Shown here piece by piece: positions 6,852 through 52,391 of a DNA stretch of 64,000 nucleotides. The stretch covers positions 416,001 through 480,000 of the forward strand of contig CAWKHF010000006.1 of NCBI GenBank assembly GCA_963849325.1, read 5' to 3'. The notes under the pieces were generated by a model. The model had not been told where the DNA came from. It searched no databases and was given only the letters and a program-made list of their open reading frames with translations. A program made the translations under genes and the position numbers. Source of the DNA: an uncultured Planctomycetota bacterium (lineage in GTDB: Bacteria; Planctomycetota; Planctomycetia; Gemmatales; Gemmataceae). The first letter of the stretch is position 1, and the number at the start of each line of letters is the position of its first letter.

Positions 6852-8142
6852 ATGGATTCGAGTCATCGGGTGGTGATCGTCGGCGGCGGCTTCGGCGGGT
6901 TGTACGCGGCGCAGGCGCTGGGCAAGGCCGACGTGCGCGTGACGCTGATTGATCGCCGCAACTTCCACCTGTTCCAGCCGCTGCTCTACCAGGTGGCGAC
7001 CGGCGGCCTCTCGCCGGCCAACATCGCCGCGCCGCTCCGCGACGTGCTCAAGCGTCAGAAGAACACTCGCGTCCTGCTCGCCGAGGCGGTCGGCTTCGAC
7101 CTCGACCGCCGGCTCGTACACCTCAAGGACGGCAGCGAGCCGTATGACTCGCTGATCGTCGCCACCGGGGCGCGCCATCACTACTTTGGACATCCGGAAT
7201 GGGAGACATACGCGCCGGGCCTGAAGTCCATCGAGGACGCCACGACGATGCGACGGCGCATCCTGTCGGCGTTCGAGCGGGCCGAGCGCTGCACGGACCC
7301 CGAGGAATGCCGGGCCTTGTTGACGTTCGTCGTCGTGGGCGGCGGACCGACCGGCGTCGAGCTGGCCGGCACTCTCGGCGAGGTCGCCCACACCACGCTG
7401 CGCGGCAACTTCCGCGTCATCAACCCGGCCAGCGCCGCGCATCCTCCTGCTCGAAGGACTCGACCGCATCCTCAACGGCTACCCGCCGAAATTGTCGGCC
7501 AAGGCGGTTCGATCGCTCAACCGACTCGGCGTCACCGTGCGCACCGGGACGACGGTGACGGACGTGCAGCCCGGCCGCGTGACGGTGCGCTCGGGCGAAA
7601 CAACCGAGGTGATTGGCGCCTGTACCGTGCTGTGGGGAGCAGGCGTCGATGCGTCGCCGCTGGCCAGGGCGCTGGCGCAGGCCACGGGCGCTCCGCTCGA
7701 TCGCCAGGGGCGCGTCGTCGTACAGCCGGACATGACGCTGCCGGGACATCCGGAAGTGTTCGTCCTCGGCGACATGGCCAATTATCCGCATTATGACGGC
7801 AAGCCGCTGCCGGGCCTGGCGCCGGTGGCCATGCAGCAGGGACGCTACGTCGCCGACCTGATTCAGCGACGCCTGCGCGGCGCCGAGCCGGTGGCGTTTC
7901 GCTTCCACGATCGCGGCAAAATGGCGACCATCGGCCGCGCCGCCGCCGTCGCCGACCTCGGCTGGATCACCTTCTCCGGCTTGCTCGCCTGGCTGACCTG
8001 GCTGCTCATTCACATCCTCTACCTGATCGAGTTCCAGAATCGCATCCTGGTGGTGTTGCAATGGGCGTGGAACTACTTCACGCGCAACCGCTCGTCGCGT
8101 CTGATCACCGGAGGAGATTTGTCCAAAAGTGACTCCGTTTAG
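6852..8142 (+). CDS. ndh: Type II NADH dehydrogenase (NAD(P)/FAD-dependent oxidoreductase); frameshift near 7437
   Basis: VVIVGGGFGG, FQPLLYQVATG, VVVGGGPTGVELAG, GDMA, APVAMQQG, GKMATIGR. Confidence 0.9.
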
Positions 8143-17265: not shown

Positions 17266-19346
17266 ATGGCAGCCGTCGGCTCATCCCGCACGGCTCGGCT
17301 CGGGGCGTGCTTTGTCATCCTGATGCTGGCAGCCCTGCCGGGCTGCGCCTCGATCCGCGTCGATCGGACGCATCAATCCGGCCTGCTTGCCGACTGGCAC
17401 GCCAGCGCCGTCGGCCGCGACGAGTTGTCGCCGCGCACGGCGCAGACGCTGCGACAATGGGATCTTGCCGACCTGTATGCGCGCTCTGCCGACGAGGCCG
17501 AGGCGCGGCTGCACGACGAGGCCGTGCGCGAATCCGCAGCCGGACCTGGTGTTCGCCCTGGCCGAGATCAACTATGTCCGGGGTCGAAAGGCCGAGCGGC
17601 ACGACTGCGCCCACGCCACTGCCTACTACTACCTCTGCGCCGGCTACGCCTACCACTACCTGTTCGACGAGCCGCCGCGTCCGGCCCCGGACATGGAGTG
17701 CAACCTGAGAACGGTCGGCAACCCGCCGGGTCCGCTGCCCGACCGCTTCTCTCCACGCGCGTCCATCTTCGACCCGCGCTTCCGCCTGGCCTGCGAGCTG
17801 TACAACGCCGGCCTGGCCAAGTGCATCGCCGCCGCTCAGCGGGTCGGCCAGCTCGACCCGCGCCATGAGCTGCGCCTGCCGACGCCGGACGGCAAGGGCT
17901 TCACGCTCTCGGTCGCCCACACCGGCTTCACCTGGACGCCAGAGGAGTTCGGCCGGCTACTCATCTGCGCCGACTACGAAGTCATCGGCGTGGCCAACCA
18001 CCATCGCAACTATGGCCTGGGTGTGCCGCTCATCGCCACGCGCGCCGCCGGCACCGGCGACGACGAACCGGGACAAACCTTCTATCCGCGCGATGCCAGC
18101 TTCGCGGCCACCGCCTTCTTCCGCTTCGCGGGCAGCCTGGCCGACCTCGGTACCCAGCGCTGCGGCCGACTCGAACTGTACAATCCGCTCACCGTCAAGA
18201 CCGTTGAGACGGCCGGCCAGACCGTGCCGCTGGAGACCGACCTGACGACGCCGCTGGCCTACTTCCTGGCCAACAGTGACCTCGGCAACCTCGCCGACTT
18301 GAAGGGCTTCGTCTACGGCGAGCACATCCGCGGCCAGACCGGCATCCGCATGATTTCCCCCTATCAGCCCGGCAAAGTGCCCGTCGTCCTGGTCCACGGT
18401 CTGCTGTCGTCGCCCTTGACCTGGGCGCCGGTCATCAACGACTTGCAGGCCGACCCGGTGCTGCGCGAGCGCTACCAGTTCTGGTACTACTACTATCCGA
18501 CGGGCGCTCCCTACCTGGCCTCCGCCGCCGAGCTGCGCCGCCAACTGAACCAGCTGCGCGACGAGGTCGATCCGCGCCATCAGGACTCGGCCCTGGACAA
18601 CATGGTGTTTGTCGGCCACAGCATGGGCGGGCTAATCTCGAAGCTGATGACGGTCAACTCCGGCAACGACTTCTGGAAGCTGGTCAGCAACGATCCGTTC
18701 GACAAGGTGAATCTGCCCGAGGCGGCGCGGGCGGACCTGGAGCAGACGTTTTTCTTTCGCCGCGAGAGCTGCGTGACGCGCTGCATTTTCATCGGCACGC
18801 CGCACCACGGCTCGAAGCTGAGTCCGTCGCCCCTGGGCCGGCTGGCGGTCCACCTGATCCATCTGCCCGAAGACCTGATGACGGCGAGCCAGGATCTCAT
18901 CAAGGACAATTCGGAGCTGCCAACGCTATTGCGGCCGCGGCCGCTGCCGACCAGCGTCGATTTGCTGGACCCCAACGCGCCGGCCCTGGTGCTGATGGCC
19001 AACCGCCCGCGACCGGAGCGCGTTCACTATCACACCATCGCCGGCGTCGTCTCGACGGCGACGACCGACTTCGAGCGCTGGCTGGCCGGCGACCGCCGCG
19101 ACCCCGGCGACGGCGTCGTGCCCTACAAGAGCCCACATCGACGACGCCGATTCCGAGTTGGTGGTGCCGGCCGATCACTTCCACGTCCATCATCATCCGC
19201 TGGCGGTGCAGGAAGTACGGCGGATCTTGCTGGAGCACTACCAAATGTTCATCCGCCAGAAGGACGCTCAGAGGGAATTGCAGCTAACGTCCTCAAATGC
19301 GGACAAAGATGCCACGCCGGTACATCCACAAGCAGATCAGCCATAG
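17266..19346 (+). CDS. Alpha/beta hydrolase (lipase/esterase) lipoprotein; frameshifted
   Basis: Lipobox-like LPGC; VVLVHGLLSS, VGHSMGG nucleophile elbow, IGTPHHGS, GDGVVPY. Confidence 0.85.
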
Positions 19347-24245: not shown

Positions 24246-24434
24246 GGGAGCCTCCTGACAGGCGGGTCGCTTGCACGGCAGCGCGAAGCCATGAGTAGCT
24301 ACCACCTTTATCGGCTTTTCCGGTCTCGCCCTTTATGCGGAGTTTGCCGATTTGTCGATGCCAGGTATGCCTTTCGAGGGTCTGGTTAGGCGCCAGGGAG
24401 GATCGCTCCTACAATCACGGTAGGAGGTGCAGCC

Positions 24435-24659
24435 ATGACACCCGTATCGTCCGTGGTCCATAGTGACCCCGACATCCTGGGCGGCGTGCCGGTGTTCGTT
24501 GGCACCCGCGTGCCCGTCCGGGCGCTGATCGACTACCTCGGCGGCGGCCAGCCGCTCTCCGAGTTTCTAGAGGACTTCCCGTCTGTCAGCCGCGAACAGG
24601 CGGTGGCTGCCCTGCGGCTGGCTGCTGAGGCACTGATGGCCCATGCGAATTCTGCTTGA
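24435..24659 (+). CDS. DUF433 antitoxin
   Basis: DPDILGGVPVFVGTRVPV...FLEDFPSV. Confidence 0.92.
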   Translation: MTPVSSVVHSDPDILGGVPVFVGTRVPVRALIDYLGGGQPLSEFLEDFPSVSREQAVAALRLAAEALMAHANSA

Positions 24660-24965
24660 CGAGTGTGTGCCCCAGCGGCTGGGCCGGGAGCTGACCGGCC
24701 ACGCCGTCCAGACGGTCCCGCAGCAGGGCTGGTCGGGCAAGAAGAACGGAGAGTTGCTCGGCCTCATGGCGGCGGCCGGGTTCGAGGTGCTGCTGACGGT
24801 GGACCAGGGCATCCCGCACCAGCAGAACCTGCCGCGGCCGGGGTGGCGGTGGTGGTGATGGCCGGCCCGAGCAACCAACTCGTGGATCTGGTGCCGCTAG
24901 TGCCTGGCGTAGTGGCCGCGCTGGGAACGATTCAGCCAGGCGATGTGGTCGAGATCCGCACCTAA
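24643..24965 (+). CDS. DUF5615 PIN-like toxin; frameshift near 24832
   Basis: MRILLDECVP, GWSGKKNGELL, LLTVDQGIPHQQNL; overlaps DUF433. Confidence 0.88.
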
Positions 24966-25100
24966 CAAGTTGTTGCAGTAGACCCGCCATGCAGCTTTGC
25001 CACGCATTAGCGGTTTTTTAGCTCAATGCGTGGCAACTTTCCTCAATGCGTTGCAGGAAACGCGCCAGAACTGTAGTTCCAAAAAGCGAACATTTTTTGC

Positions 25101-25129
25101 TTGACAGGTGTCAACATTCCGGCTATCGT
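25101..25129 (+). promoter_or_regulatory. sigma70-like promoter with palindromic operator; probably leaderless mRNA
   Basis: TTGACA-17-TATCGT, palindrome TTGACAGGTGTCAA over the -35, ATG 6 nt after the -10. Confidence 0.6.
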
Positions 25130-25135
25130 TCCTGA

Positions 25136-25981
25136 ATGGGAAGGCCACGGCATCCGAATAAGCACATCGAGAAGGCCGTCCAATACGCGGAGGCTCTCGG
25201 ATGGCGCGTCGAGCTATCAAATGGTCATGCTTGGGGCCATTTGCTCTGCCCACAGAGTACCCGTGAAGGGTGCATTGTCGGGGTCTGGTCTACTCCCAAA
25301 AACGCTGAAAACCACGCTCGCCACATCCGGCGTGAAGTTGATATTTGTCCTCATGGAACACCTAGCAAAGGCAACGTTGAAGAACTACAGTGTGCAAGAA
25401 AAAAGGGGAGGGAAATGAAAACCGGGAAGCCGTGTGAGCGGGAGCACGACTTTGTCCTGGTCCTGACTGGCATTAACGAGTTGACGCCATCAGTGGAGGA
25501 AGCTCTGTTTGAGGCCGGCTGCGATGACGCTACGCCTAGCGTCCGATTCGGTCGAGTATACCTAACCTTCTCGCGTTGTGCCGCATCTCTGAAAGATGCA
25601 ATCCTGAGCGCAATTCAGGACGTGAGGGCGGCCAAGATCGGGGCAGATGTACTCCGAGTCGATCACTGCAACCTTGTCACGCAGGCCGACATTGCCCGTA
25701 AAATCAACCGAAGTCGGCAGCTTGTTCATCAATACTACACTGGAGTCCGTGGCCCTGGCAACTTCCCGCCCCCGGTTTGTCACATATGCGATGAGTCGCC
25801 ACTTTGGTATTGGTGCGAGGTTGCCTATTGGCTTTGGGAGAACGACATGATTACAGAGGATGTGTGTCGGGAGGCTGAACATGTCGCCTTCATCAATACT
25901 GTACTAGAGCTTAAAAACCAACGAGAGATTGATCCGAAGTTAGCAGAAGAGGTACTCCAATCAATCGGTGCAGCTCAGTAA
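25136..25981 (+). CDS. HicA-like toxin domain + HicB-like/HTH antitoxin domain (one ORF as sequenced; internal RBS+ATG at 25415)
   Basis: HPNKHIEKAVQYAEALGWRV...GHAWG...VWSTPKN; second half EALFEAGCDDA, LVTQADIARKINRSRQLVHQY, FPPP. Confidence 0.65.
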   Translation: MGRPRHPNKHIEKAVQYAEALGWRVELSNGHAWGHLLCPQSTREGCIVGVWSTPKNAENHARHIRREVDICPHGTPSKGNVEELQCARKKGREMKTGKPCEREHDFVLVLTGINELTPSVEEALFEAGCDDATPSVRFGRVYLTFSRCAASLKDAILSAIQDVRAAKIGADVLRVDHCNLVTQADIARKINRSRQLVHQYYTGVRGPGNFPPPVCHICDESPLWYWCEVAYWLWENDMITEDVCREAEHVAFINTVLELKNQREIDPKLAEEVLQSIGAAQ

Positions 25982-25999
25982 GTTTTTGCTTCCAGTATG

Positions 26000-26034
26000 C
26001 GGCAAGTCCCAGTCTAATAAGCCGGGACTTGCCG
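26000..26034. terminator. Hairpin between convergent genes
   Basis: CGGCAAGTCCC...GGGACTTGCCG followed by TTT. Confidence 0.6.
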
Positions 26035-26035
26035 T

Positions 26036-27321
26036 TTAACTAGGTCGCTGCATTCTTAGGATCATCCCCGCGCCGTCCTGTCGCTCCTCCGGCTCCTCAT
26101 CCTTCCAGAATACCGGCACGATGCCAAGCGTTTCTTGCTCCTGAATCAAGCAGGACAGGTTGTGGCAGAGGATTTTGCACAGCACTTCGTTGACCATCGA
26201 CATTTCGTTCTTGCTCGCCACCCTGTCGCCGAACTTCCGCTTGATGGCGCGAGAAGGTGATCTCGACGTTGCTGCGCTTGTGATAATGGGTCATGTACTC
26301 TTCCTGGTTGCACTGAAAGTAGTGGTAGGCTTTCTCGAAAGCGCCGCCAATCGCGCCCGTGCTGTTGGACTTGAAGGCAATGAACGCCTGCCCGCCGCAA
26401 GCTGCAACCTCTTCAAAGTTCTCCACGGAAAGGTAAGCCTTGTCGGCGCTCACTTCGCCGATCTCAAAATGCGTCTTCGTCTCGCGGACCAGCGGGACGA
26501 ACTGAGGGCAATCATGGGCATCCTTGTCCAGAATGCGGACGGCAGTAACGACATTCGTTTTCACGCCGGAGGCGATATGCGTCTTGACCCAGATGCCGCG
26601 CGTCCGCGTGACGCCGTACTTGTGGTCGTACCAGCGCTCGTAGACGGCAAGTGCTGAACCCGCTGCTGTCGATGGCGAAGTCTTTTTCGACCGGATCGCA
26701 ACGGACGGGCCTTTCGCCGACGAGCTGCTTGAGAACCGGCGTGTAGTACGGGTCTTCCATGAACGTTGTCGCCTTCATGCCGGGAATCAGCTTGCGGGTG
26801 AATCCTTTCTCGTAGGCTTCCTGCAAGGTCTGTGGAGAAGCGGCGGGCGCTGTAAACCGCAGTAAACCTTGTAGGCCATCGTGAAGACGGCATCACTAGA
26901 ACGCGTGCGGCTTCGTGCCCGTCGTGCTTGCCGGCCGCTGCGCGATCTGGCACGACGGCGAGCAGAGGTCGTGCAAGAGGACGCGGAGGCGGCGCTTCTC
27001 CGTGGCTTGCGCCATGTTGTACTTCGGCCAGTCCTGCTTGTAGGTCTTCCGCTCGGTGAGCGTAATCGTCTTCGTCTCAATCACGGTGCCATCCGGCAGC
27101 ACATCCCTCTTGTGGACGATGGACGCGGCGTAGAAGTGCTTGCAGGTGTTGCCGCCGTCAACGTGATCCAGGCAAGTGCAGGTCTTCGCTTCCAGGTTGA
27201 CGCGGTACGTCGCGTTACCGCTCTTGTTGGACTGGCTCGGCACAAGCCAGGTGCCGTCGTTCATGCGGTTCAGCCGACAGGTCGCCGCGATGATGAGTCC
27301 ACGCTGCTCTCTGGCGTCCAT
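26036..27321 (-). CDS. Transposase: N-terminal SWIM zinc finger + IS4/IS5-clan DDE domain; frameshifted
   Basis: CTCLDH...CKH (SWIM); FAIDSSGF, HDCPQF, ADKAY, YHKRSNVE.TFS (YREK-like). Confidence 0.85.
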
Positions 27322-27357
27322 TTTCTCAATCTCCGGGACAACGCTCTTGTCCACATT

Positions 27358-27386
27358 ATTGTATACACCGGAGACAGATTTGTAAA
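27358..27386 (-). promoter_or_regulatory. sigma70-like promoter of transposase 1
   Basis: TTTACA-17-TACAAT on the minus strand, embedded in repeated TGTNNAC motifs. Confidence 0.55.
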
Positions 27387-27443
27387 CATATTGGTAGACA
27401 GTTTTCCTAGTTTTTCTCGGCTTTTTTCGTAATCGCTTGCCAG

Positions 27444-27677
27444 TTACAGAAGGTCTTTCAGGTTCCGGTTGATGGCCCAAGCAAAGTCGAGAAGAGTGGA
27501 AAGACGGGGATCGTAGTCCGATTCAGGATTGAGCAGGCGAGACACTGCCTGCCGTGCCCCTCCCTTAGCAAGCCCCATGCGGAGGCCGATCTCTTCCTGC
27601 GTCATGCCGCTTTCTTCGGCTGCCTGACGCATTCTCTGTCGGACAGAGGCGACCGCGAGATGGTTCACCTTCCCCAT
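27444..27677 (-). CDS. XRE-family HTH regulator
   Basis: GMTQEEIGLRMG...AVSRLLN...DPRLSTL. Confidence 0.85.
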   Translation of the reverse strand: MGKVNHLAVASVRQRMRQAAEESGMTQEEIGLRMGLAKGGARQAVSRLLNPESDYDPRLSTLLDFAWAINRNLKDLL

Positions 27678-27808
27678 GTTGTAAGTCTACACCTTCGTAG
27701 TCATTCGGGCAACATGAACGTTGGCAACAGTAACTGCCACGAAAAGACACCCTGCTGTGGAGAATGGTCCTCGTAACTCCTTTTGCGTCACCGTCTTGCG
27801 ATGTTCTA

Positions 27809-27837
27809 TTGACATAAGCCCTTATCGAGCTTACAAT
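27809..27837 (+). promoter_or_regulatory. sigma70-like promoter for the methyltransferase-PIN genes
   Basis: TTGACA-17-TACAAT. Confidence 0.6.
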
Positions 27838-27888
27838 TAGGACGAGTGTAGGAGCACTAGATGCCCCCGTCCTCAGCTGAGGTCCGGT

Positions 27889-30445
27889 GTGAAATTCACA
27901 AGCGCAGTGCAGGAGCAATCATTCCGCGCGGTGCTGCGCGCGTTGGAGCGGTTGGGTTACACTCGCGACGTTTTGTTGAAAGAGGAGTATCCCTTCGACG
28001 ACTGGTTCTTGCCCGGCAACCAAGAGCGAGTCGCCCCAGCCGTGGCCTTCGGCCAGACCCCTCTCGCTTACGACAGCGCTTGCTTCGCGGTGGTGGTGTC
28101 CAACGGCCAGCAAGGCCCCGAACTGGTCAACCAGTATCGTGCCTTGGGTGCCCCCCTCGCTATCGAAGTTCGCCCTGACAAGGTAGTACACTGGCGAGTC
28201 AGCCGAGCCATGTCGGCTGGAGATGAGCAGTTCGTCATCCCCCCGGATCGGGTAGAGGATGCCTTCCAGGAGAATGCGCACAAGTGGAACCCGGAAAGTG
28301 TTTTTCGGGCAAAGAACATCGCCGCAACATCTCCCCGCCAAGCCGACTTCGTGGACCTCGGCTTAATCCCTGCACTGGAGCAACACGTTCGCGCCAAACT
28401 CGATCCCTTGCTGCGGGAGGTATTGCACGCGGGGAAGAAGGAGTATGAATACCGCAAGGGAGGACCGCCGGACCCAGACAAACTGTACCGCCTTGTATTC
28501 CGGACCCTCGCGGGGAAGATGATGTCTGAGCGGGGGGTGTTAGGCTTCCACTCGGCCAACGGTGCGCCGAACGCCCCGGATCTCTAGACAAGGTTGCCAA
28601 ATTCTACAGTGATTCCCAGCCGGTCGTTGCCGATGTGTCAACCCAACGGGTTGTCGTGGAAAGGCTGTGGCAGAGCATCAGCCTGAGAAATCTGTCCGTC
28701 GAAGTGCTGGCGTTCGTCTGGGAGAACACCCTTGTAACCAGGGATATTCGCGAGGAACGAGGCATTCACGCCACCCCGCCCAGCATCGCCCGATACCTCG
28801 TTCACCGCCTGCCTATCCAAGACATTCCACAGGCTGAGCGGCGCATTGTCGAACCTTGCTGTGGGAGCGGCACGTTCTTGGTTGCGGCCCTCCAGCGACT
28901 GCGTGAACTGCTACCGCCTTCGATTGACCCGCGGAGTCGGCACAAGTATTTCACCGACATGCTCAGCGGGTTCGACAATGAAACCTTCGGCTTGGAGGTG
29001 GCGCGTCCAGCCTAATGCTTGCCGACTTCCCGAACCCGAACGGGTGGGCGCTCGTCGAGGAAGACGTTTTTGGGACGCCCGAGCAGTCGCCGCAGTTCCA
29101 CGCCGCTTTGCAAGCAGCCCGCGTGGTTCTGTGCAACCCGCCATTCGAGCCGTTCAAGCCACGGGACCGCGCTTTGTACGAGTTACGCTCCGTCCATAAG
29201 CCGGTGGAACTATTGCAGCGAGTCCTCGACCAACTCGGAAATCAGGGGCTTCTTGGCTTCGTACTTCCCCAGCAACTACTCAATGGGGTGAGTTACCGCA
29301 GCATTCGAGAGAGACTGGCCGAGCGGTATGAAGAAATCGAGTTGGTCGGCTTGCCGGATAAGGTCTTCGAGAAGTCTGAACACGAAACAGCTCTCCTGCT
29401 GGCGAAGGTCCCGCGAACCCATCGGGGGCCGCTGTCCATTCTCCACCGCAAGGTCGAGGACAGGGGTTGGCCTCTCTTTAACGCTTACTCCCAGGTCAGC
29501 CGAGAAGACGCCGGAGCCAAGACCCCAGCGCAAGCATCCGACAACATCGGGATACCCGACCTCCAAAGCATCTGGACGCGCACTGGCCGGATCACCCACG
29601 GTCGGCGATGTTACGGGCGGGAACGTCCACCGCGGCATCGAATGGAATCTTCCACTGGACGAGAACAAGTGAGCTGTTGATCTCCAAGGCTGCACAGCCC
29701 GAATATGGCGCGGCGTGCCGCGTGCGCGAAGAGGCTTTTACTCCTACCAGTGCCCATCTCTCTCATACCTCTGCATGAAGGAGGAGTACCGAAGAAGGAA
29801 CGCTTTCAACTTGCCTTGGAATCTACCCAAGGTAATCATGAACGCGAAGCGGAAGTGCGCGGTCCCTGGCGGATTGCGGCATACGCCGACGAGGCCGGAC
29901 TGGTTTGCTACCAGACGTACACCGCCCTGTGGCCGTCTGGGGATTGGACTGCGACGGCTCTGGCCGCAGTCCTCAACGGGCCGGTTGCGAATGCGTTCGT
30001 TGCGTCCCACGAAGGCAATCGTGACATCACCGTCGAGACAGTCAAGGCAATTCCGGTTCCGCCGCTGACGAATGCCCTGAAAGGGGGGCTTACGAAGTTG
30101 GTAGCCGAGTATCGGACAGCCGCCGAGCGAATGGAGCTTGAAGTCAGGTCGGGCGAGCGCTCAGCGCGCGACATCCTTCGCGAGATTGACGCGGCCATCC
30201 TGAGAGCCTACGACCTCTCGCCTAGGCTCGAACATGAACTGCTCAACTATTTCAGCGGGTATGGCACGAAGAGGCCAGTGCCCTTCAACTTCGGCGACTA
30301 CTACCCGGCCGACTTTAGCTCGCATATCCCCTTATGGATGTTTCTCTCGCCAGAGTTCCAGAGAGGCAACCCGCAGGACATCTTGTCGAAAGCTCCTAAG
30401 ATCACCGATCCGGCATTGATCGACGCATTCCGTGAAGTGGAGTAA
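27889..30445 (+). CDS. N6-adenine DNA methyltransferase, type IIG/Eco57I-like architecture; several frameshifts
   Basis: GIHATPPSIARYLV, motif I EPCCGSGTFL, motif IV NPPF, GFVLP, TRD-like LAAVLNGPVAN...IPVPP, EIDAAILRAYDL. Confidence 0.8.
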
Positions 30446-30451
30446 CCTGCT

Positions 30452-31010
30452 TTGCCAAACGGAAAACTGCTCGACAATAACGTGATTTCGGTTCTTGCGA
30501 GTGCCAAGGACCCAAGGAGGCCGATAGCGGAGGCACACCTAGCCGCGTCTGGTTTCGGGCCGATTGTCTTTCCGTGCATCGCTATCGGCGAAATCGAATT
30601 TGGGATGATGAAGGCGACAAACCCAGACGCGGCACAACAGGCGAGCATGAGGGCATTCCTTAAGCGCTATCCGATTCTCCCTTTCGACCATCACACCGTC
30701 GAACCGTATGCGATGATTCGCGCAAAAACTCTGGCTCATGTTCGGCACTGCGAAGGTGCGCGGTCACGCCGAAAAACTCCCAGAAGAGTTGAAAGACCGC
30801 GCAACAGGACTCTGCCTAGGTATCGATGAACGAGACTTACTCATCGCCAGCATCGCGGTAGCGTTTAACCTATTCCTGGCGACGATGGATCGCAATGACG
30901 GGATGCGGCGGATTGAGGCAGCTGCGGCGGTCCTTGAAGCAGAAGGCAAGCCTGTTTGCCTCCGGATTGAGGATTGGTCGAAACCGTTGCCCGGCGCGTC
31001 TGACTATTGA
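30452..31010 (+). CDS. PIN-domain (VapC-like) nuclease; frameshift near 30728
   Basis: LLDNNVIS, IAIGEIEFG, GIDERDLLIASIA, LATMD, IEDW. Confidence 0.82.
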
Positions 31011-31126
31011 GTCAAAACGTTGCAGACCGCCTCAAAACGTTGCAGCTCGCCAATGCGTTGCAAAGCTCCGCCATGCAGCTTTGCCACGCATTGACACTTT
31101 TTCACGTCAATGCGTGGCAACTTGCC

Positions 31127-32428
31127 TCAATCCGTTGCAGGCGGCGAAAACCGTAGGACCATCCGCGCGCTGTCCTGTCGCTCCTCTAGCTCCTCATCTT
31201 TCCAGAAACCGGGCACGATGCCAAGCGTTTCCTGCTCCATGAATCAGGCAGGACAGGTTGTGGCAGAGGATCTTGCAAAGCACTTCGTTGACCATCGACA
31301 CGTTCGTTCTTGCTCGCCACGTCTGCCCCGAACTTCCGCTTGATCGCGGAGAAAGTGCGTTTCGACGTTCCACCGCTTGTGGTAGTGCGCCATGTACTCT
31401 TCCTGGTTGAACTGGAAGAAGTGAAACGCCTTCTCGAAAGTGCCGCCAACCGCGCCCGTGCGCGTTGGACTTGAAGGCGATGAACGCCTGCCCGCCGCAC
31501 TCGGCGACCGCCTCAAAGTTCTCCACGGATGGCGTAAGCCTTGTCCGCGCATCACTTCGCCGATCTCGAAGTGCTTCCGCGTCTCGCTTGACCAGCGGGA
31601 CGAACTGCGGGCAATCGTGGGCGTCCTTGTCGAGAATGCGGACGGCCGTAACGACGTTCGTTTTGACGCCGGAGGCGATGTGCGTCTTGACCCAGACGCT
31701 GCGCGTCCGCGTGACGCCGTACTTGTGGTCGTACCAGCTTCTCGTAGCCGCGAGCTGCCGAAGCCGCTGCTGTCGATGGCGAAGGCCGTTTCGAGGGAGC
31801 GGAGCGGGCGGGCGCTGTCGCCGATCGAGTTGCTCTGAGGATCGGCGTGTAGTACGGGTCTTCCGCGAACGACGTCGCCTTCATGCCGGGAATCGGCTTG
31901 CTGACGAAACCCATCTCGTAGGCTTCGTGCAGGTCCGTGGTGAAGCGGCGGGCGCTGCAGGCCGCAGTAGACCTTGTAGGCCATCGTGAAAAGGGCATCG
32001 CGAACGGCAGTGCGGCTTCCTGCCGGTCGTGCTTGCCGGCCCGGTCGCGGGCCGGGAGACGGGAGCAGAGGTCGTGCAAGAGGACGCGGAAGACGGCGTT
32101 TCTCCGTCGCCTGCGCCACGTTGTACTTCGGCCAGTCCTGCTTGTAGACCTTCTTTTCGGTGAGGGTGATGGTCTTCGTTTCGATGACGGTGCCGTCGGG
32201 CAGAACGTCGCGCTGGTGGACGATGGAGGCGGCGTAGAAGTGCTTGCAGGTGAAGCCCGCCCTCGGTGTGGTCCGGGCAAGTGCAGGTCTTCGCTTCCAG
32301 GTTGACGTGATAGGTAGCGCGTCGCCGCCTTGGTGGACTGGCTCGGCACAAGCCAGGTGCCGTCAGGCCAGGCGGTTGAGCCGACAGGTCGCCGCGATAA
32401 TCAGGCCGCGCTGCTCTCTGGCATCCAT
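31127..32428 (-). CDS. SWIM-DDE transposase, second diverged copy; many frameshifts
   Basis: MDAREQRGLIIAATCRL, CTCPDH...CKH, FAIDSSGF, YHKRWNVE; stop codon lies in the left-end repeats. Confidence 0.85.
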
Positions 32429-32563
32429 AGCGATTGCCTTCCATTGAAGGGCGGAATCGCGTAGAATGAATCTTATGCGAGGTCGCATTCTGGCGCTGAT
32501 CCGCCGGACTGTGATCTGCTCAGCAGCCGTTAGCGCGGCTGCTGAGCGTTTCGGTTTCTGCAA

Positions 32564-32637
32564 GGTGCATGACGGGAATCGAACCCGCAACCCTCCGACC
32601 ACCAATCGGTTGCTCTGCCTGTTGAGCTACATGCACC
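32564..32637 (-). tRNA. Atypical tRNA: GGT at the anticodon position with His-like G-1:C73
   Basis: G-GTGCATG TA GCTC-AACAGGCA-GAGC A ACCGA-TTGGTGG-TCGGA GGGTT GCGGG-TTCGATT-CCCGT CATGCAC-C folds as a cloverleaf; no encoded CCA. Confidence 0.8.
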
Positions 32638-32698
32638 ATCGGGTTAGACGGAAGGCAGCACTTCCGTCTAACCCATCCTCCTCCCTTACCTTGATATG

Positions 32699-32726
32699 AT
32701 TATATCGCTATCAGGGTAAAAATCAA
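32699..32726 (-). promoter_or_regulatory. sigma70-like promoter for the tRNA and transposase 2
   Basis: TTGATT-16-TATAAT on the minus strand; direct repeat CTATCAG; divergent TTGACA-17-TAGGAT at 32768. Confidence 0.6.
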
Positions 32727-32820
32727 GCCTATCAGCCTTCTTTCTCAAGAATTTTTCGAGCCAGTTCTTGACATGGCCCGATTGCCTGGATAGGATTTAT
32801 CGAGAAAGGGGGATTTTGTC

Positions 32821-33619
32821 ATGGCGGCAAGCGAGGAAAAGAAACGCACGCGAAGCCCAGCCTACCCAAGCATTGATCTTAAGGAAGCGATCCATTACGC
32901 GGAGACGGCGTACAGCGAGGAAGACCACCACGCATTCACTCCAGAGGCGGCGGCGGAACACTGGGGCTACAAGTCCACCAGTACGCGCCGTGAGCCAAAT
33001 AATTTCGGCACTGAAGCAGTTTGGCTTGCTCATTGAAGAACACGGTAACGAGGTTCGACGGGTTCGACTATCGCCGCTAGCTCTTGATCTCATAGTCCAT
33101 GAAGACGAAAGCGATCTACAGAGGAGAGATTTGCTTAAGACTGCGGCCCTGAATCCGAAAATCCATCGAGAAATTTGGGACAAATACGGTGGCAAGTTGC
33201 CCTCCGATACTTCCCTGAGAATCTATCTTCTGCGGGAACGGGAAGGATCGCCCTTCAACAAAGATCAAGTCGATAGGTTTATCAGCCAGTTACGGGAAAC
33301 AATCGAGTTTGCAAAGCTCGCTCCGGGTGATAAAATGTCCGAAGGGGGTGCTGCTACGGTCGATTCAGTCGAGGAAGACAGCAACGGCGACGGTGACGTG
33401 GATGAAGGCAAGCAGCGCTCTCCGCAGCGGAGACGAGCGATGCAGACAGGGCTTAAAGAAGACGTTTACACATTGGATCAGGGGCAGGTCGTCGCCATCC
33501 AGTGGCCCGAAAAGATCGACGCGGGCGAGATTGAGGACGTAGCGGACTGGATGCAGTTGGTCATCAAGAAGATGAAACGCTCCGCTCAACAGGAAGAGAC
33601 AAAGGAATTTGCTGAATAA
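32821..33619 (+). CDS. Hypothetical protein, possibly winged-helix DNA-binding; frameshift near 32985
   Basis: RSPAYPSIDLKEAI then ISALKQFGLL; own promoter and RBS. Confidence 0.6.
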
Positions 33620-33889
33620 GCGGATGCGATCCACACAAGAAGTCCGGCCAAGCAGCCGGGCTTCTTCCTGCGCCTCTGCGTCCGCCCGCTCTGCGTGGCG
33701 GGCTAAGGGATCACCGGCGAGAGGTCTCAAAGTCCAGAAACGCCAATGATGCGGAGGGCGCAGTAGCAGAGGTAAGCTTGGATGGAGGAATCGCTCTTGC
33801 TGTACAGTCGTATCGGTGAGTAGACTAAGACAAAAGGAGAGCGTGGTAGCGCTCTCCTTGTCCCACACAAACCTGTTCAGGAGGTCGGT

Positions 33890-34666
33890 GTGACTACAAG
33901 TCATCCTATCGTTCGACGCCGTTTCGAGCAAGGTGTCCTTGTCTTCGACTACGGCGAAACACACGTCCGTTGCGGCGGAACTGCTGACAAGCCTTGGTTC
34001 GTCGCCAAGGACATGTGCGAGGTTCTTGGGATCTCCAACCACAGCGACGCCATCGGCGGGCTGGATGACGACGAGAAAGGTGAGGTCGCTATTGCCGACC
34101 CCATCGGCAGAAAGCAAAAGACGGCAATAGTTTACGAATCGGGTCTCTACCAACTTGTCTTCCGGTCCCGCAAACCCGAAGCCAAGGCGTTTCGCAAGTG
34201 GGTCACGTCCGAAGTCCTGCCTTCGATCCGCAAGACCGGCTCGTACCGCGCTCGGGAACGCCAACGGTATCAGCAGTTGGGTCTATCTCCTGAATGGATC
34301 GAAAAGCGCGAGGAAGGAATCGCTGCCCGGAATCAGTTCACAGACACCCTCAAAGAACATGGAGTAACGGAGGGGCGAGATTACGGTCGCATCACGAACA
34401 CGCTCTATTACCCAACGCTCGGCGGTGCGGCTGCCGCCGTCCGAAGTCGCCTAGGCATTCCCGTAAAAGCAAGCATTAGAGACAACTTGCCACTGCTGGA
34501 GTTGTTTAAGGTGGGCATGGCCGAATTGCTAGCTCAACGAAAGATCGAAGTAGAAAATCGACAAGGCTTCGATGAGTGCAATCAAGCCACGGCGATGGTG
34601 GCCAACAACGTCGCCAACGCCGTGAAGCAGACCGAAGAGGGCAAACGGCTGCCTCCTTCCGAGTGA
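33890..34666 (+). CDS. BRO-N domain (phage antirepressor-like) protein
   Basis: PWFVAKDMCEVLGISN, ESGLYQLVFRSRKPEAKAFRKWVTSEVLPSIRKTGSY. Confidence 0.92.
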   Translation: MTTSHPIVRRRFEQGVLVFDYGETHVRCGGTADKPWFVAKDMCEVLGISNHSDAIGGLDDDEKGEVAIADPIGRKQKTAIVYESGLYQLVFRSRKPEAKAFRKWVTSEVLPSIRKTGSYRARERQRYQQLGLSPEWIEKREEGIAARNQFTDTLKEHGVTEGRDYGRITNTLYYPTLGGAAAAVRSRLGIPVKASIRDNLPLLELFKVGMAELLAQRKIEVENRQGFDECNQATAMVANNVANAVKQTEEGKRLPPSE

Positions 34667-35035
34667 ATGAAAATCGGGCCGACCAGTTATGCTTGGCATA
34701 ACTGGTCGGCTCTTTCTCTTGCCGTCCGTGGATCGCCAATCCGTTGCAGCCGACCGAATTTCGTTGCAGGTGCCCAAAGCGTTGCAAAGACCCGCCATGC
34801 GATGGATGCTTGCGCGTCATCACAGCTCATCTCGCGTAAGCCGGTTGCTGGGCGCGGTGACGCCCTGGTTGAGGCATCTTCCACCTTTGTTGGCTTTGCC
34901 GTCTGCACGCTTCCCGCAGTCCTTGCTGCGAAAGCCTTATCCCGCGTCGTCCGCGCGGCCTTGTTCCGAGAGGCTGGAGAAGTTAAGTTAAATTTTCCGT
35001 CTCCGGCACTCCCCCTTCCTCATCGAGGAGAACCC

Positions 35036-37812
35036 ATGAAACGCACCTTGCTGGTCGTGCTGCCCTTGGCGGCGCTAACCCTCGGCCTGTTCGGCCACGC
35101 CGCTCCGTCGGGGCATTCGTCCGATGATCCGCCGAAGAAGTTCGAGGACTTCGACAAGGTCGTCAAGGGGGCCAAGCAATACGACGGCCTGTTCCGCCTG
35201 TTCCACAAGGACGAGCACCTGTACGCCGAGATCCGCACCGACCAGCTCGGCAAGCCGTTCCTCTGCCCCATCGCCATCGCGCGCGGCGCCGGCCTGGGCG
35301 GCTACACGCTCAACTTCGACGAGCAATGGGTGCTCCTCTTCAAGCGCGTCGGCGACAAGGTCCACCTGGTCCGCCGCAACGTCCACTTCCAGGCCAAGGC
35401 CGGCTCGCCGGCCGCTCACGCCGTCGAGACCACCTACACCGACTCGGTGCTGATGGCCCTGCCCATCAAGGCCATCAACCACGGCCACAACTCGCGTCCT
35501 GCTCGACTTCAACGACATCTTCATGACCGACTTCGCCCAGCTGAACCTGGGCTCGCTTCGACGCCAACCGCAGCACCTGGCACAAGATCAAGGCGTTCCC
35601 GCGCAACATCGAGCTGGAGGTGGCGGCCACCTTCGACGGCGGACGCGGCTTCTCGCTTCTTCGGCGACGACAGCGTCATCGACAGCCGCGGCAAGACCGT
35701 CGTCATCCACTACGGCCTGTGCCAGCTGCCCGAGCACGGCTATCAGCCGCGCCTGGCCGACGACCGCGTCGGCTACTTCCTCAGCGTCGTCAAGGACTTC
35801 AGCTCCGACAACGAGGACACGTCGTTCCTGCGCTACGTCAACCGCTGGCGGCTGGAGCGGGCCGAGCCGGTCGATCCCAAGCACCCCAACAAGCTGTCGC
35901 CGCCGAAAAAGAAGATCGTCTTCTGGATCGAGAAGTCGGTGCCCGACGAATACCGGGCGGCCGTGCGCGAGGGCATCCTCGAATGGAACAAGGCGTTCGA
36001 GAAGATCGGCTTCCGCGACGCCATCGAGGTGCGCCAGCAGGAGAACGAGGACTTCGATCCCGAGGACATCAACTACAACACGTTCCGCTGGATCACCACC
36101 GACCAGGGCTTCGCCATGGGGCCGTCGCGGGCCAACCCGCTGACCGGCGAGATCCTCGACGCCGACATCATCTTCGACGCCAGCATGGTCCGCTTCTGGC
36201 GCGAGGAGGCCAAGCTGTTCCGCGGCGACGGCAGCGCCGGCCAGCCTGATCCAGGCCACCCGCGCAGGGTTGGAGCCTGTTCGATCCGCCTGCGCGCCCG
36301 ATCGCCAGCGCGCAGGCTGTGATGGAAGGCTGGAACGATCCCAAGAAGGCGGAGCAGAACCGACTGCGCGCCCGCCTGCTGGCGACGCGGCAGGGTCTCT
36401 GCCAGTGCGGTGCCGCACATGCAGCTACGAGCTGGGCATGGCCGCCATGACGCTGGCCGCCAAGGGCGAGACCAAGCCCGGCGAGAAGCTGCCCGACGAG
36501 CTGATTCAGCAGGCCATCAAGGAAGTGACCATGCACGAGGTCGGCCACACGCTCGGCCTGCGGCACAACTTCAAGGCCAGCACCATGCTCAAGAACGAGC
36601 AGCTGCACGACACCAGCCATCACGCGCAAGCAAGGGCCTGGTCGGCTCGGTCATGGATTACGCCCCGATCAACCTCGCCCCCAAGGGCGTCAAGCAGGGC
36701 GACTACTTCAGCACGACCATCGGGCCCTACGACTACTGGGCCATCGACTACGCCTACAAGCCGCTGTCGGGCGGCACCGACGGCGAGGCTGGACAAGCTC
36801 AGGAGATCGCCACGCAAGGCGCCAAGCCCGGCCACGACTACGCGCACCGATGAGGACATGTTCAGCACGTCCGACCCGCTGGTCAACGTCTGGGACCTCG
36901 GCGCCGACCCGATGAAGTTCGCCCAGGACCGCATCCTGCTGGCCGAGGAGCTGCTCAAGGGGCTGGCCGACCGCGTCGTCGACAAGGGCGAGGGCTACCA
37001 GCGCGCCCGGCTGGCCTTCAACGTGCTGCTGGGGCAGTACGGCAACGGCGCCTACCTGATCGGCCAAGTTCATCGGCGGCGAGTACATGCACCGCGACCA
37101 CCGCGGCGACCCCAACGGCCGCGATCCGTTCGTCCCCGTCACGGCCGACAAGCAGCGCGAGGCGCTGAAGTTCTTGCAGGAGCACATCCTGTCGCGACAA
37201 GCACTTCCAGTTCTCGCCGCGGCTGCTGCGCCGTCTCGGCGCCGATCGCTGGCTGCACTGGGGCAACGAGATGGACGCGTTCGGCTCGGTCGATTACCCG
37301 CTGCACCAGCGCATCCTGAACATCCAGCGGATCGTGCTGGAGCACGTTTTCGACCGGCCGTGCTGTCGCGCATCCAGAACAACGCCGTGCAAGGCGGACA
37401 AGGACGAGAAGCCGCTGACGATCGCCGAGGTGTTCCGCGGCGTGACGGACGGCGTCTGGAGCGACGTGCCGGACAAGGACGGCAAGGAGGCCAAGCAGCC
37501 GCGTGTCCTCGTCGGTGATCCGCCGCAACTTGCAGCGCGAGCACCTGAAGAACCTGTACACCTTGGTGCTGGGCAAACGACAGCAGAACGATAGCTTCTT
37601 CTTCTTTTTCTTCGGCGGTGGCGACAGTTCGGTGCCGCCGGACGCCCGCAGCCTGGCGCGCATGCACCTGCGCGACATCGGCAAGCGCATTGACGCCACG
37701 CTCGGCGACAAGCAAGGCGACCGTGGACGACACGACCCGCGCTCACCTGGAGGAGTGCCGCGAGCGCATCGCCAAGGTGCTGGGCGCCTCGATGCAGGTG
37801 AATGAGCCGTAA
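35036..37812 (+). CDS. Zinc-dependent metalloprotease (DUF5117/DUF4953 type); many frameshifts
   Basis: Signal peptide, PRLADDRVGYF, WNKAFEKIGF, NPLTGEILDADI, HEVGHTLGLRHNF, SVMDY. Confidence 0.9.
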
Positions 37813-50640: not shown

Positions 50641-52391
50641 ATGGCTGGCCGATGCTTTTACGTCTCGTGGGTGGACCTTCGCACCGATCCGTGGCCGCAG
50701 TGGGAGAAGGTCCGACCCGGCACCGGGGAGATGATGCTGGAAGGGCAACGCATCCGCTGCCTGCCGGTCGACCATCCCCACTGGCCGGCCGTCCCGCTGC
50801 TGGAGCAGGCGGGGCCGCCGATGGTGGCCGACCCGCGCCTCGGCCGCTACGTCTGGCCGGGCATCCCGCTTGTGCTCGACGGCCGACCATGCCGCCTCTA
50901 CACCGGCCCGACGCTCAGCGCCCTGTTCCATCCGGGCAGTCGATTCTGCAATCTCGAAGGACTCGATGTCGTCTACCTCTTGTATCAGCCCGAACGCGCG
51001 GACGGATCGCACGAGCTGTTGCGCAACGTCCTCGCCCGACTCTGCCAGGCCCGCGACATCCAGAACGCGGACAAGCGAATCCAGTTCGTGGACGTCAAGG
51101 GCATCGCCGACCCAACCGACCACGCCGCCATCATTCGAGCGATCGAACAATGGCTGGGGCGGGACGACCCGTTCGATCTCGGCCGCCGCGGCTCGGCGAA
51201 AAACCCGCCGCGCATCGTCATCAACCTGAGTCCGGGCACGCCGTCCATGCACGCCGCCTGGCTGATGCTGCGCTGGAATGGAGCGCTGGGCGGGCGGAGA
51301 GTATCGTCGAATTCGTCCAGGGCGACGGCGGACTGGTCGAGCGCTGCCGTCGAGGGACCGCCGCCCAACCCGCTGCGCATCGTGCCGATCGACGTGCTGG
51401 CTCAGTGGTCGGCCGCAACGGGGGCTGGCGCCGCAGCCGGCCCTCGGCCCGGAAGAACCGAGCGTGCCGCTGGAAGAGCTGAACGGCCCGCCCTTCGACG
51501 ACCTGCGCCAGAAGATCGACCACGCCGCCATGCTCGGCCTGCCGATCCTCTTGCAGGGCGAGCGCGGCACCGGCAAGACGTTCCTGGCCCACTACTACCA
51601 TCAGCGCCGACAATTCTACGCGCCTTCCAGGCGGAGCGAGGCCGCGCCGGCCAAGACCGGCGGCGCAAGGCGACGGCAAGGAGGCGATGCGAAAGGCCGC
51701 CGAACGCTTCCCGGAGAAGACCGGGCCGAGCAGCTTCGTCGGCGTCACGCTGTCGGAGTTCGCCGACCTCGATACGCTGCGCGACACGCTGTTCGGCTGG
51801 GCCAAGGGAACGCCTGGACCGGCGCCTACAAGGCGTACGACGGCCTGCTCGGCGAGGCGCACGGCGGCACGCTGTTCCTCGACGAGATCCACCACCTGAC
51901 CCGGCCGTTGCAGGCGGCGCTGCTCGGCCCGCTCAACGCCGCCGCTATCGCCCCAAGATGGCCGACCTACGAGGTCATCAGCCACTTCGACCTGGTCGTC
52001 GCCACCAACGATCCGCAAGTGGCGCGACAAGATGGCCGACGACTTCCGCGACCGCATCGAGCGGATCGTCCTGGAGGTGCCGTCGTTCCGCTCCTTTCAG
52101 CGACACGGGGCGGACATCATCTGGCGGTTCTGGGAGTTCACGCTCCGCCGCCGCTGCCGCGAGTGCGGCATCGAGTACAGCGGCGAGGGACGGGCTTGGC
52201 CGGAGTGCTGCGAGCAGCTGAAGGGCTGTTCCGACGTCACCCGCTGGCGCGGCAACTGGCGCGATCTGCAACGCCTGGCCGACAACTTGCTGCTGCATCT
52301 GACCTCGTCCCGCGACGGCCGGCCGTCGCCGATCCGCTGGGACCGCGACAAGCTGGAGCACGCCATCGCCGAGACGTTCGCGGAGACGTGA
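50641..52391 (+). CDS. sigma54-type enhancer-binding AAA+ ATPase with RtcR/CARF-like N-terminal domain, no C-terminal HTH; frameshifted
   Basis: DPTDH and IVINLSPGTPSMHAAW; Walker A GERGTGKT; LFGWAK..AWTGA (GAFTGA variant); GGTLFLDEI; VVATN; DFRDRI; WRGNWRDLQR. Confidence 0.8.

Follow-up and report, generated by a model that had tools for sequence, protein, structure and literature searches.

Eukaryotic transposases of the MULE/FAR1 type, which belong to the Mutator/IS256 superfamily, combine a DDE transposase with a SWIM finger (CxCxnCxH) at the C-terminal side. Tn7-like elements have asymmetric multi-site ends, carry cargo and use one position repeatedly. For the IS903 group (IS903, ISPam1, ISPko1), Table 2 of PMC3281130 gives a length of about 1.05 kb, a transposase of ~309 amino acids (aa), single inverted repeats of 15-27 bp and no passenger genes; the same table lists ISPam1 and ISPko1 of Paracoccus as IS5/IS903-group insertion sequences (IS) with 9-bp repeats. 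IS30, which belongs to another family, integrates beside its own inverted repeats in an orientation-specific manner, as described in PMC9333248. It moves by a copy-out-paste-in route via circles or dimers, and its highly reactive junctions have a 2-bp spacer. The present analysis concerns a 64-kb stretch of DNA from an uncultured Gemmataceae bacterium of the Planctomycetota (GCA_963849325.1, contig CAWKHF010000006.1, positions 416,001 to 480,000; hereafter the window), in which two cargo-carrying transposons, designated E1 and E2, are stacked at one 9-bp target.

The family of E1 and E2 shares with the IS903 group the DDE_Tnp_1 core with a Y-R-E-K signature, the 9-bp duplication and a tip starting with GGCTTTG. 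Two further traits of that group, its size without cargo and a curated model score, were not found. In contrast to the IS903 group, the family members are 2.6-9.3 kb long, always carry cargo and have three binding-site-type repeats per end; the transposase of ~425 aa has ~95 extra N-terminal residues with a finger and a conserved C-terminal tail, its identity to the group is just 25-26%, and all NCBIfam IS5 models scored below their cut-offs. Insertion beside a resident cognate repeat would, as for IS30 and IS911, give an end-to-end junction with a spacer of the length of the duplication. Unlike in IS30, the partners are two different cargo elements, and a further copy of the 9-bp duplication arises at the distal end. 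The combination of a DDE transposase with a CxCxnCxH finger resembles MULE/FAR1-type enzymes, but the core is of the IS5/IS903 type, the finger is N-terminal and Foldseek gave no clear fold-level link. Asymmetric multi-site ends, cargo and repeated use of one position are reminiscent of Tn7-like elements, but only one transposase gene is present in this family, a conserved attachment site is lacking and the insertion sites of relatives are unrelated. No TnsD/TniQ-type selector or ATPase was found among the open reading frames (ORFs) of E1, E2 and E3, the closest relative of E1 in the same genome.

Two elements bounded by three copies of one 9-mer

Coordinates are positions in the window, and the strand of an element is that of its transposase (Table 1). 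All three copies of the 9-mer CCGCCATGC on the + strand between 24984 and 34800 abut element tips. The left junction reads GTAGAC-CCGCCATGC-AGCTTTGCCACGCATT, the middle junction AATGCGTTGCAAAGCT-CCGCCATGC-AGCTTTGCCACGCATT and the right junction AAAGCGTTGCAAAGAC-CCGCCATGC-GATGG. E1 and E2 lie head to tail and are oriented alike, their transposase genes both being on the - strand. They have in common the left end (74 nt, 88% identity), the right end (64 nt, 75%) and the transposase region (1284 nt, 85%); outside these parts nothing is shared and the cargo is unrelated. The G+C content is 0.52-0.64 between 25000 and 35000, compared with about 0.65-0.68 in the flanks. The first-pass annotation had described two distinct elements of a cargo-carrying family at one position, exactly bounded by the 9-mer, alike in orientation and end motif, with homologous but diverged transposases and entirely different cargo, and reading the junctions confirmed this description in each of these points, with exact coordinates.

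Two further copies of CCGCCATGC were found in the window at 51525 (+) and 5114 (-), which gives five copies against 1.89 expected (five or more in 3 of 100 shuffles), and 261 copies are present on both strands of the whole genome. Since this is a common 9-mer, the raw count is unremarkable, and the part not due to chance is the placement at three tips.

Three CGT[T/G]GCA sites lie at each end of both elements, giving six per element, compared with 0.31 per kb elsewhere in the window. At the left end an inverted terminal site is followed by two + sites, and at the right end all three sites are on the + strand; the ends are asymmetric because of this difference in site orientation. E3 has the same layout. 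The left end of E2 contains a 15-nt palindrome and is equivalent to the left end of E1. The identity of the outer flanks spans 13 nt instead of 9 (AGACCCGCCATGC, 24980-24992 and 34788-34800, two copies in the genome) because the last four bases of E2 equal the four chromosomal bases left of copy 1. The E2 tip ends in AGAC compared with the usual AGCC or AGCT; this match to the left flank may be due to chance or to sequence conversion across the repeat.

The transposase genes of E1, E2 and E3 contain 3, 15 and 7 private frameshifting indels, respectively; those breaking the E1 and E2 frames are of single bases. The E1 transposase has the motifs AIDSSGF, SADKAY and YHKRSNVE, and the catalytic motifs are present in both E1 and E2. 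The genome is a metagenome-type assembly of 14 contigs with a completeness of 84.7%, and other genes in it are broken as well. The chromosomal metalloprotease gene (35027-37809) is split into at least six frame pieces, compared with intact ORFs of 904-958 aa in four relatives, and one base is missing from the PIN-like gene at about 24644-24965 in comparison with genome G407. In a same-genus relative, near-identical transposase copies are likewise broken. Because the whole assembly is rich in indels, the broken transposase frames are not proof of decay, and gene calls in this genome need frameshift-aware handling. The excess of indels in E2 may be real or may result from cross-mapping of reads between paralogues.

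As the frameshifts spoil a protein-level comparison of E1 and E2 with database homologues, a nucleotide tree was calculated. It had the topology (E2,(E1,E3)) with a support of 1.0, and E1 is therefore nearer to E3, which lies on another contig, than to the adjacent E2. In a whole-genome blastn search with E1 and E2, related sequence was detected only at E3 and at three diverged or broken copies, and none of these four adjoins CCGCCATGC. E3 (C10:71028-74468) lies at an unrelated locus and is bounded by GCTCCATCG/GCCCCATCG. A diverged intact paralogue in the same genome has the duplication ACATTATTA.

A family of IS903-type transposases with a SWIM-like finger

Of 906 candidates in a protein search with the N-terminal piece of E3, 301 had E ≤ 1e-3. 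The 120 homologues listed were mostly 415-435 aa long, nearly all with PF01609. At least 560 relatives are present in species-representative genomes of Planctomycetota, Acidobacteriota, Chloroflexota and other phyla. Intact homologues of ~420-427 aa matched DDE_Tnp_1 (Pfam PF01609, E 2.7e-20 in homologue P0001). In 52 homologues the signature Y344-x2-R347-x3-E351-x6-K358 is invariant; D216 and D291 (nearly invariant) are conserved together with E351, Y344, R347 and K358, and the residues C48, C50, C60 and H62 of the N-terminal CxC...CxH finger are invariant. The single IS4/IS5-clan DDE enzyme with a SWIM finger proposed in the first-pass annotation is thus well founded in the DDE match and the four invariant ligands, with the finger taken as SWIM-like. 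The SWIM model PF04434 scored 16.8-18.6 bits in three of four intact homologues and 18.2 in the E1 fragment, below the gathering score of 19.6 bits, and had no match in the fourth homologue; a precomputed PF04434 match was present in 8 of the 120 homologues listed. An AlphaFold model (predicted local distance difference test score, pLDDT, 73) has a beta-beta-alpha arrangement at the finger, with strands at 25-28 and 38-42 and a helix at 61-71 (pLDDT of the block 66-86).

All NCBIfam IS models scored under their cut-offs in the four intact homologues, the best being NF033579 (IS5_2) with 97-108 compared with 140 bits. Foldseek gave generic DDE matches only (ISCth4 transposase, E 1.2e-3, template modelling score TM 0.27; Tn5, E 0.6-1.3). 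The nearest annotated plasmid proteins were the ISPam1 and ISPko1 transposases. As the likeness to these proteins covers residues 93-385, the first ~95 residues with the finger are an addition to a complete IS903-type enzyme. The tips of ISPam1 are GGCTTTGTTGCGCTA, compared with the GGCTTTGC-type found in 33 of the 79 related loci. The enzyme is classified as a ~425-aa IS5-family, IS903-type DDE transposase with an N-terminal SWIM-like finger. E1 and E2 are different members of one subfamily of small, cargo-carrying transposons with a single transposase.

The first-pass annotation had named the finger as a candidate targeting domain. Binding to the subterminal repeats is at least as likely a role as target selection; it is plausible because the finger is an N-terminal addition to a complete transposase and co-occurs with multi-site ends. 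A description of a prokaryotic transposase combining a SWIM finger with an IS5/IS903 core was not found in the literature searched. The family is widespread and apparently without a name, and its members, which fall under the cut-offs of all NCBIfam IS models, are now annotated just as 'transposase' or 'hypothetical protein'.

Related loci were analysed by a script that required inverted ends and an exact 9-bp repeat at each locus; chance pairs were removed from L047 and L063, as were two additional pairs from L037. In 33 of 79 related loci, inverted ends of the GGCTTTGC type or close variants (AGC, GAC) were found together with an exact 9-bp duplication. These 33 elements are 2.6-6.0 kb long, so that all of them carry cargo; E1 measures 6.1 kb, and the two elements on contig G431:C14 measure 8.1 and 9.3 kb. 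The duplicated 9-mers are mutually unrelated, and a logo of 34 reconstructed sites had no more than 0.4 bit at any position. One relative genome contains one element twice (L075/L076), with the duplications TCGGCGGGT and TTGCGCCGC. The family makes 9-bp duplications and has no fixed target sequence: the unrelated 9-mers, the flat logo and the position of E3 at GCTCCATCG/GCCCCATCG rule such a sequence out. The target specificity proposed in the first-pass annotation was therefore not upheld, since homologous elements (E3, L075/L076 and those at the 33 loci) sit at unrelated sites.

In two Planctomycetaceae genomes (L038, L071) the elements lie centrally in similar palindromes, CCGTAAGGGAGCGG...CCGCTCCCTTACGG, with differing 9-mers. 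The arms of these palindromes resemble the elements' own subterminal TAGGGAGC repeats, and the palindromes may represent former end-to-end junctions or members of a repeat family that serves as target. A comparison of flanks with ends in 34 elements gave a modest excess of scores of 7 or more, which came from the non-independent loci L050-52 and L038/L071 and from trivial rows of the stack.

The stack layout recurs in other genomes. Among 83 loci, canonical tip-to-tip junctions were found only at a spacer of 9, in L016 and L052; matches at other spacers were non-canonical and due to chance. On contig G431:C14 (the genome of L016), the layout in the window is reproduced exactly: GGCCTGGCG precedes a left tip, separates a right tip from a left tip and follows a right tip, and the two elements bounded in this way measure 9283 and 8105 bp. 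The transposases of this pair are on one strand, and similarity is confined to the transposase (92%), the left end (89%) and the right end (100% of 65 nt). On a second contig of the same genome, G431:C2, CATAAAAAT bounds two elements, Y1 and Y2, in the same orientation with transposase regions of 78% identity. Y1 and Y2 are nested in an outer element, giving a 15-kb array with its own 9-bp duplication CACGCCCGG, and CATAAAAAT lies natively 26 nt inside the tip of the outer element. At locus L052 the right tip is followed by a 9-bp spacer, equal to the duplication of the element, and then by a solo end of ~60 bp; a degenerate tip precedes the left 9-mer. On G535:C14 an end of the same type holds an element 10 nt inward of its tip; the duplication of this element is CCGGTAAGG. 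A new element directly beside a resident cognate inverted repeat was thus found in the window, on G431:C14, on G431:C2 and at L052. In all three full stacks the ends and transposases are 78-92% alike and the cargo is wholly unrelated. A 115-bp miniature piece with a 10-bp spacer was also observed on G431:C2 (L129, 13556-13680).

Probable insertion beside a cognate end, and other explanations

Because the three-fold layout recurs with other 9-mers, the re-use of CCGCCATGC is better explained by the neighbouring resident end than by the 9-mer itself. The shared duplication probably arose when a second element inserted into the 9 bp adjoining a resident cognate end, without recognition of the 9-mer, and a probability of roughly 0.55 is assigned to this reading. 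In its favour are the lack of a target sequence, the recurrent stacks with partners of one subfamily and orientation, the restriction of canonical tip-to-tip junctions to a spacer of 9, the grouping of E1 with E3 instead of E2 in the nucleotide tree, and the precedent of IS30. The first element would have inserted and duplicated CCGCCATGC, and the second would have inserted into the copy adjoining the resident tip, duplicating CCGCCATGC again. Transposase bound to the resident end, which has three predicted binding sites, would steer the incoming complex to the adjoining 9 bp, so that, of the two staggered cuts in the target, one would hit the very phosphodiester bond at which the enzyme cleaves the resident tip. 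Such a mode would resemble the inverted-repeat targeting of IS30 and IS911, with a spacer of the duplication length of this family. The anatomy, the family, the absence of a target consensus and the recurrence of stacks are observed, whereas the order of the two insertions, the part played by the resident end and the cleavage chemistry are proposals drawn from them.

Several observations weigh against insertion beside a cognate end. The attraction by a resident end is read from the anatomy of five loci in four genomes, and the position of the insertion relative to the resident tip varies (0, 10 and 26 nt). On G431:C2 (L129, G431:C2:9000-28999) the last 26 nt of the outer element are present twice together with CATAAAAAT (7003-7046 and 17602-17636), and this 35-bp duplication of 9-mer and tip is not explained by a simple 9-bp insertion. 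The full stacks all come from assemblies with few long contigs and are known from assembled sequence only. Stacks are rare (2 of the 79 loci drawn regardless of stacking), and two of six inspected close pairs of transposase genes had no junction. An empty or singly occupied allele was not found in 30 relatives and 200 genomes of the family. When 401 genomes of the phylum were scanned for tip-N{0,20}-tip, 34 matched, about as in a reversed-pattern control, and none of the matches listed had a spacer of 9; the sample contained few carriers of the family, and chance matches dominate. In metagenomes, GCAAAGCC-N{5,13}-GGCTTTGC was found with a spacer of 9 in 7 of the 80 loci listed, no excess over the range of 3-14 per spacer, and here too chance dominates, with a transposase relative in only 2 of the loci listed. 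A looser tip pattern gave thousands of chance matches in 121 family genomes and no usable signal.

Among the alternatives, a tandem duplication in place survives best, although it is unlikely. Unequal exchange between the 9-bp repeats would give the order T-E-T-E-T (T, target copy; E, element), followed by divergence and by replacement of the cargo through recombination with relatives. It guarantees the same orientation and partners of the same subfamily, and in all three full stacks the partners are of one subfamily with both transposase genes on one strand; three stacks are a small number from which to read an orientation specificity, and a tandem duplication predicts the same orientation. 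The identical right ends of the pair on G431:C14 also fit, and the tree is compatible if E3 descended from E1 later. However, a complete exchange of cargo would be needed in every stack, and in E3 too, and the insertions 10 and 26 nt inside cognate ends and the solo end of L052 are left unexplained.

Slightly less probable is a local hot spot, in which the 9 bp and their surroundings are a strongly preferred target, comparable to the hot spots of IS903, and received two insertions without any influence of the resident element. For IS903, a palindromic target motif around the 9-bp duplication is given in Table 1 of PMC2577343, and the elements of L038 and L071 lie inside their similar palindromes with different 9-mers. 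However, each copy of the 9-mer retains only one original flank after the first insertion, the logo of 34 sites has no consensus and stacks recur at unrelated 9-mers. An assembly artefact, in which two strains had different elements at one site and their alleles were joined in series during assembly, is improbable. The metagenome-type, incomplete and indel-rich assembly invites this explanation, but a false join would have to rest on an overlap of only 9 bp, the layout is replicated at two loci of another genome, and two insertions at one 9-mer would be required even so. Recognition of CCGCCATGC or a close consensus through the SWIM finger is the least probable explanation, as the match of the E3 duplication at 5 of 9 positions (C.CCAT) is outweighed by the 33 relatives at unrelated 9-mers and by the finding that none of the related copies in the genome lies beside one of its 261 occurrences.

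Beyond insertion beside a cognate end as such, a dedicated end-homing mode is a tentative and rather doubtful extension, in which transposase on the multi-site resident end guides relatives into the adjoining 9 bp and thereby builds ordered head-to-tail cargo arrays. If it exists, arrays of defence candidates, toxin-antitoxin genes and tRNAs would accrete at one chromosomal point, and an array would move as one unit from its outermost ends, as might be the case for the 15-kb array of G431:C2. Recombination between like-oriented transposase genes would reshuffle the cargo, an integron-like route of accretion that would explain unrelated cargo in close relatives, and the cassette of toxin-antitoxin type on the left of E1 might in that case be what is left of an initial element in the array. 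Insertion beside cognate ends as such, if real, would already give the family a simple means of piling up different cargo modules at one spot and of exchanging them, and would bear on the formation of defence islands and mosaic mobile elements. End-targeting, documented so far for IS30- and IS3-family elements, would then extend to the IS5 family, and whether the SWIM finger of a prokaryotic transposase serves to bind ends or to choose targets becomes a testable question.

Cargo and chromosomal surroundings

The features of the stack are listed in Table 1.

Table 1. Features of the E1/E2 stack and of related miniature elements (window positions, unless a contig is named)
Feature	Position	Strand	Remarks
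Toxin-antitoxin-like cassette	24406..24983	+	DUF433 gene, then PIN-like gene (1-base frameshift)
CCGCCATGC, copy 1 of 9-bp duplication	24984..24992	+	Abuts E1 left tip
Element E1, 6075 bp	24993..31067	-	Tips AGCTTTGCCACGCATT and AATGCGTTGCAAAGCT; 9-mer on both sides
E1 left end	24993..25056	+	Terminal repeat (- site), two internal CGT[G/T]GCA (+)
E1 cargo ORF, 281 aa	25136..25981	+	PADLOC PDC-M06A (residues 1-75, E 1.2e-28), PDC-M06B (115-263, E 1.4e-24)
E1 transposase gene (SWIM-like finger, DDE)	26036..27321	-	Read through 3 private frameshifting indels
E1 N6-adenine DNA methyltransferase or type IIG-like gene	27889..30445	+	Four ORF pieces; Pfam N6_Mtase, MmeI_Mtase
E1 PIN/VapC-like ORF, 125 aa	30452..30829	+	Pfam PIN E 5.9e-4, NCBIfam VapC E 8e-8, both below cut-off
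E1 right end	31012..31067	+	Three CGTTGCA, all +, last one terminal
CCGCCATGC, copy 2	31068..31076	+	Spacer, E1 right tip to E2 left tip
Element E2, 3715 bp	31077..34791	-	Bounded by CCGCCATGC on both sides
E2 left end	31077..31140	+	Site layout as in E1 left end
E2 transposase gene	31127..32428	-	15 private frameshifting indels
tRNA-Thr(GGT) in E2	32563..32637	-	ARAGORN; 135 bp upstream of E2 transposase start, same strand
E2 cargo ORF, 283 aa	32768..33619	+	No family match (Pfam, NCBIfam, PADLOC, PHROG)
E2 Bro-N/anti-repressor-like protein, 258 aa	33890..34666	+	Pfam Bro-N E 3.2e-23
E2 right end	34736..34791	+	Three CGTTGCA in +; tip GCAAAGAC
CCGCCATGC, copy 3	34792..34800	+	Abuts E2 right tip
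98-bp miniature elements	G000 C6:555210-555307, C4:46224-46321, C12:1479294-1479391		Outside the window

Many cargo modules of the family are candidates for defence functions. The 281-aa ORF of E1 also matched PHROG 2620, 'excisionase and transcriptional regulator' (E 1.1e-32), and had no Pfam match. The methyltransferase gene of E1 matched the PADLOC models MTase_II (E 2e-11) and REase_MTase_IIG (E 1.5e-8), and the Bro-N protein of E2 matched PADLOC PDC-S13 (E 6.3e-24) and the PHROG anti-repressor Ant (E 2.2e-42). The cargo of E3 is a Schlafen AlbA_2 + HATPase_c_4 protein.

A tRNA gene that precedes the transposase start by 146-451 bp on the same strand was observed in 13 of 57 related loci (L003, L004, L012, L013, L019, L024, L030, L033, L037, L045, L051, L061 and L082). 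The anticodons vary (Thr, Ser, Ala, Gly, Leu, Cys, Tyr, Asn, one 'stop' TTA and one undetermined), and several of these family-associated tRNA genes are unusually long with 88-94 nt.

The stack starts 18 nt past the stop codon of the PIN-like gene of the toxin-antitoxin-like cassette. A copy on G407:C3 (L122, 5014-5593), where the locus is a different one, is 84% identical to the cassette, with homology up to exactly 24983. In the intact G407 copy, Pfam DUF433 was matched with E 8.4e-18 and PIN_10 with E 9e-4, the latter below cut-off. The tail of the cassette, CAAGTTGTTGCAGTAGAC, is tip-like, but its score of 6 corresponds to the 95th percentile of a shuffled control and is not significant. 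As regards an older element left of E1, no transposase was found near three other copies of the cassette. In the same-genus relative G402 about 1 kb separates the two flanks, and the outer genes, which are the same, enclose a different toxin-antitoxin pair. The 150 bp that adjoin the stack on its right were found in no relative.

The whole variable region that separates the upstream gene from the metalloprotease gene is flanked by short imperfect direct repeats (24298-24326 and 34877-34904). Similar repeats in a same-genus relative (L123, 5243-5313 and 6190-6260) flank a different toxin-antitoxin pair (Gp49-like + HTH). The repeat-flanked variable region may be a spot of cassette exchange.

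Outside the window, a decayed copy of the family (L002, G000 C2:190690-194926) is interrupted by at least two other insertion-sequence-like ORFs. The three miniature elements of Table 1 are 100% identical and have family tips, AGCTTTGCAACG...CGTTGCAAAGCC. One of them is flanked by a perfect 9-bp duplication, CTCTTTTGT, and the other two have none.

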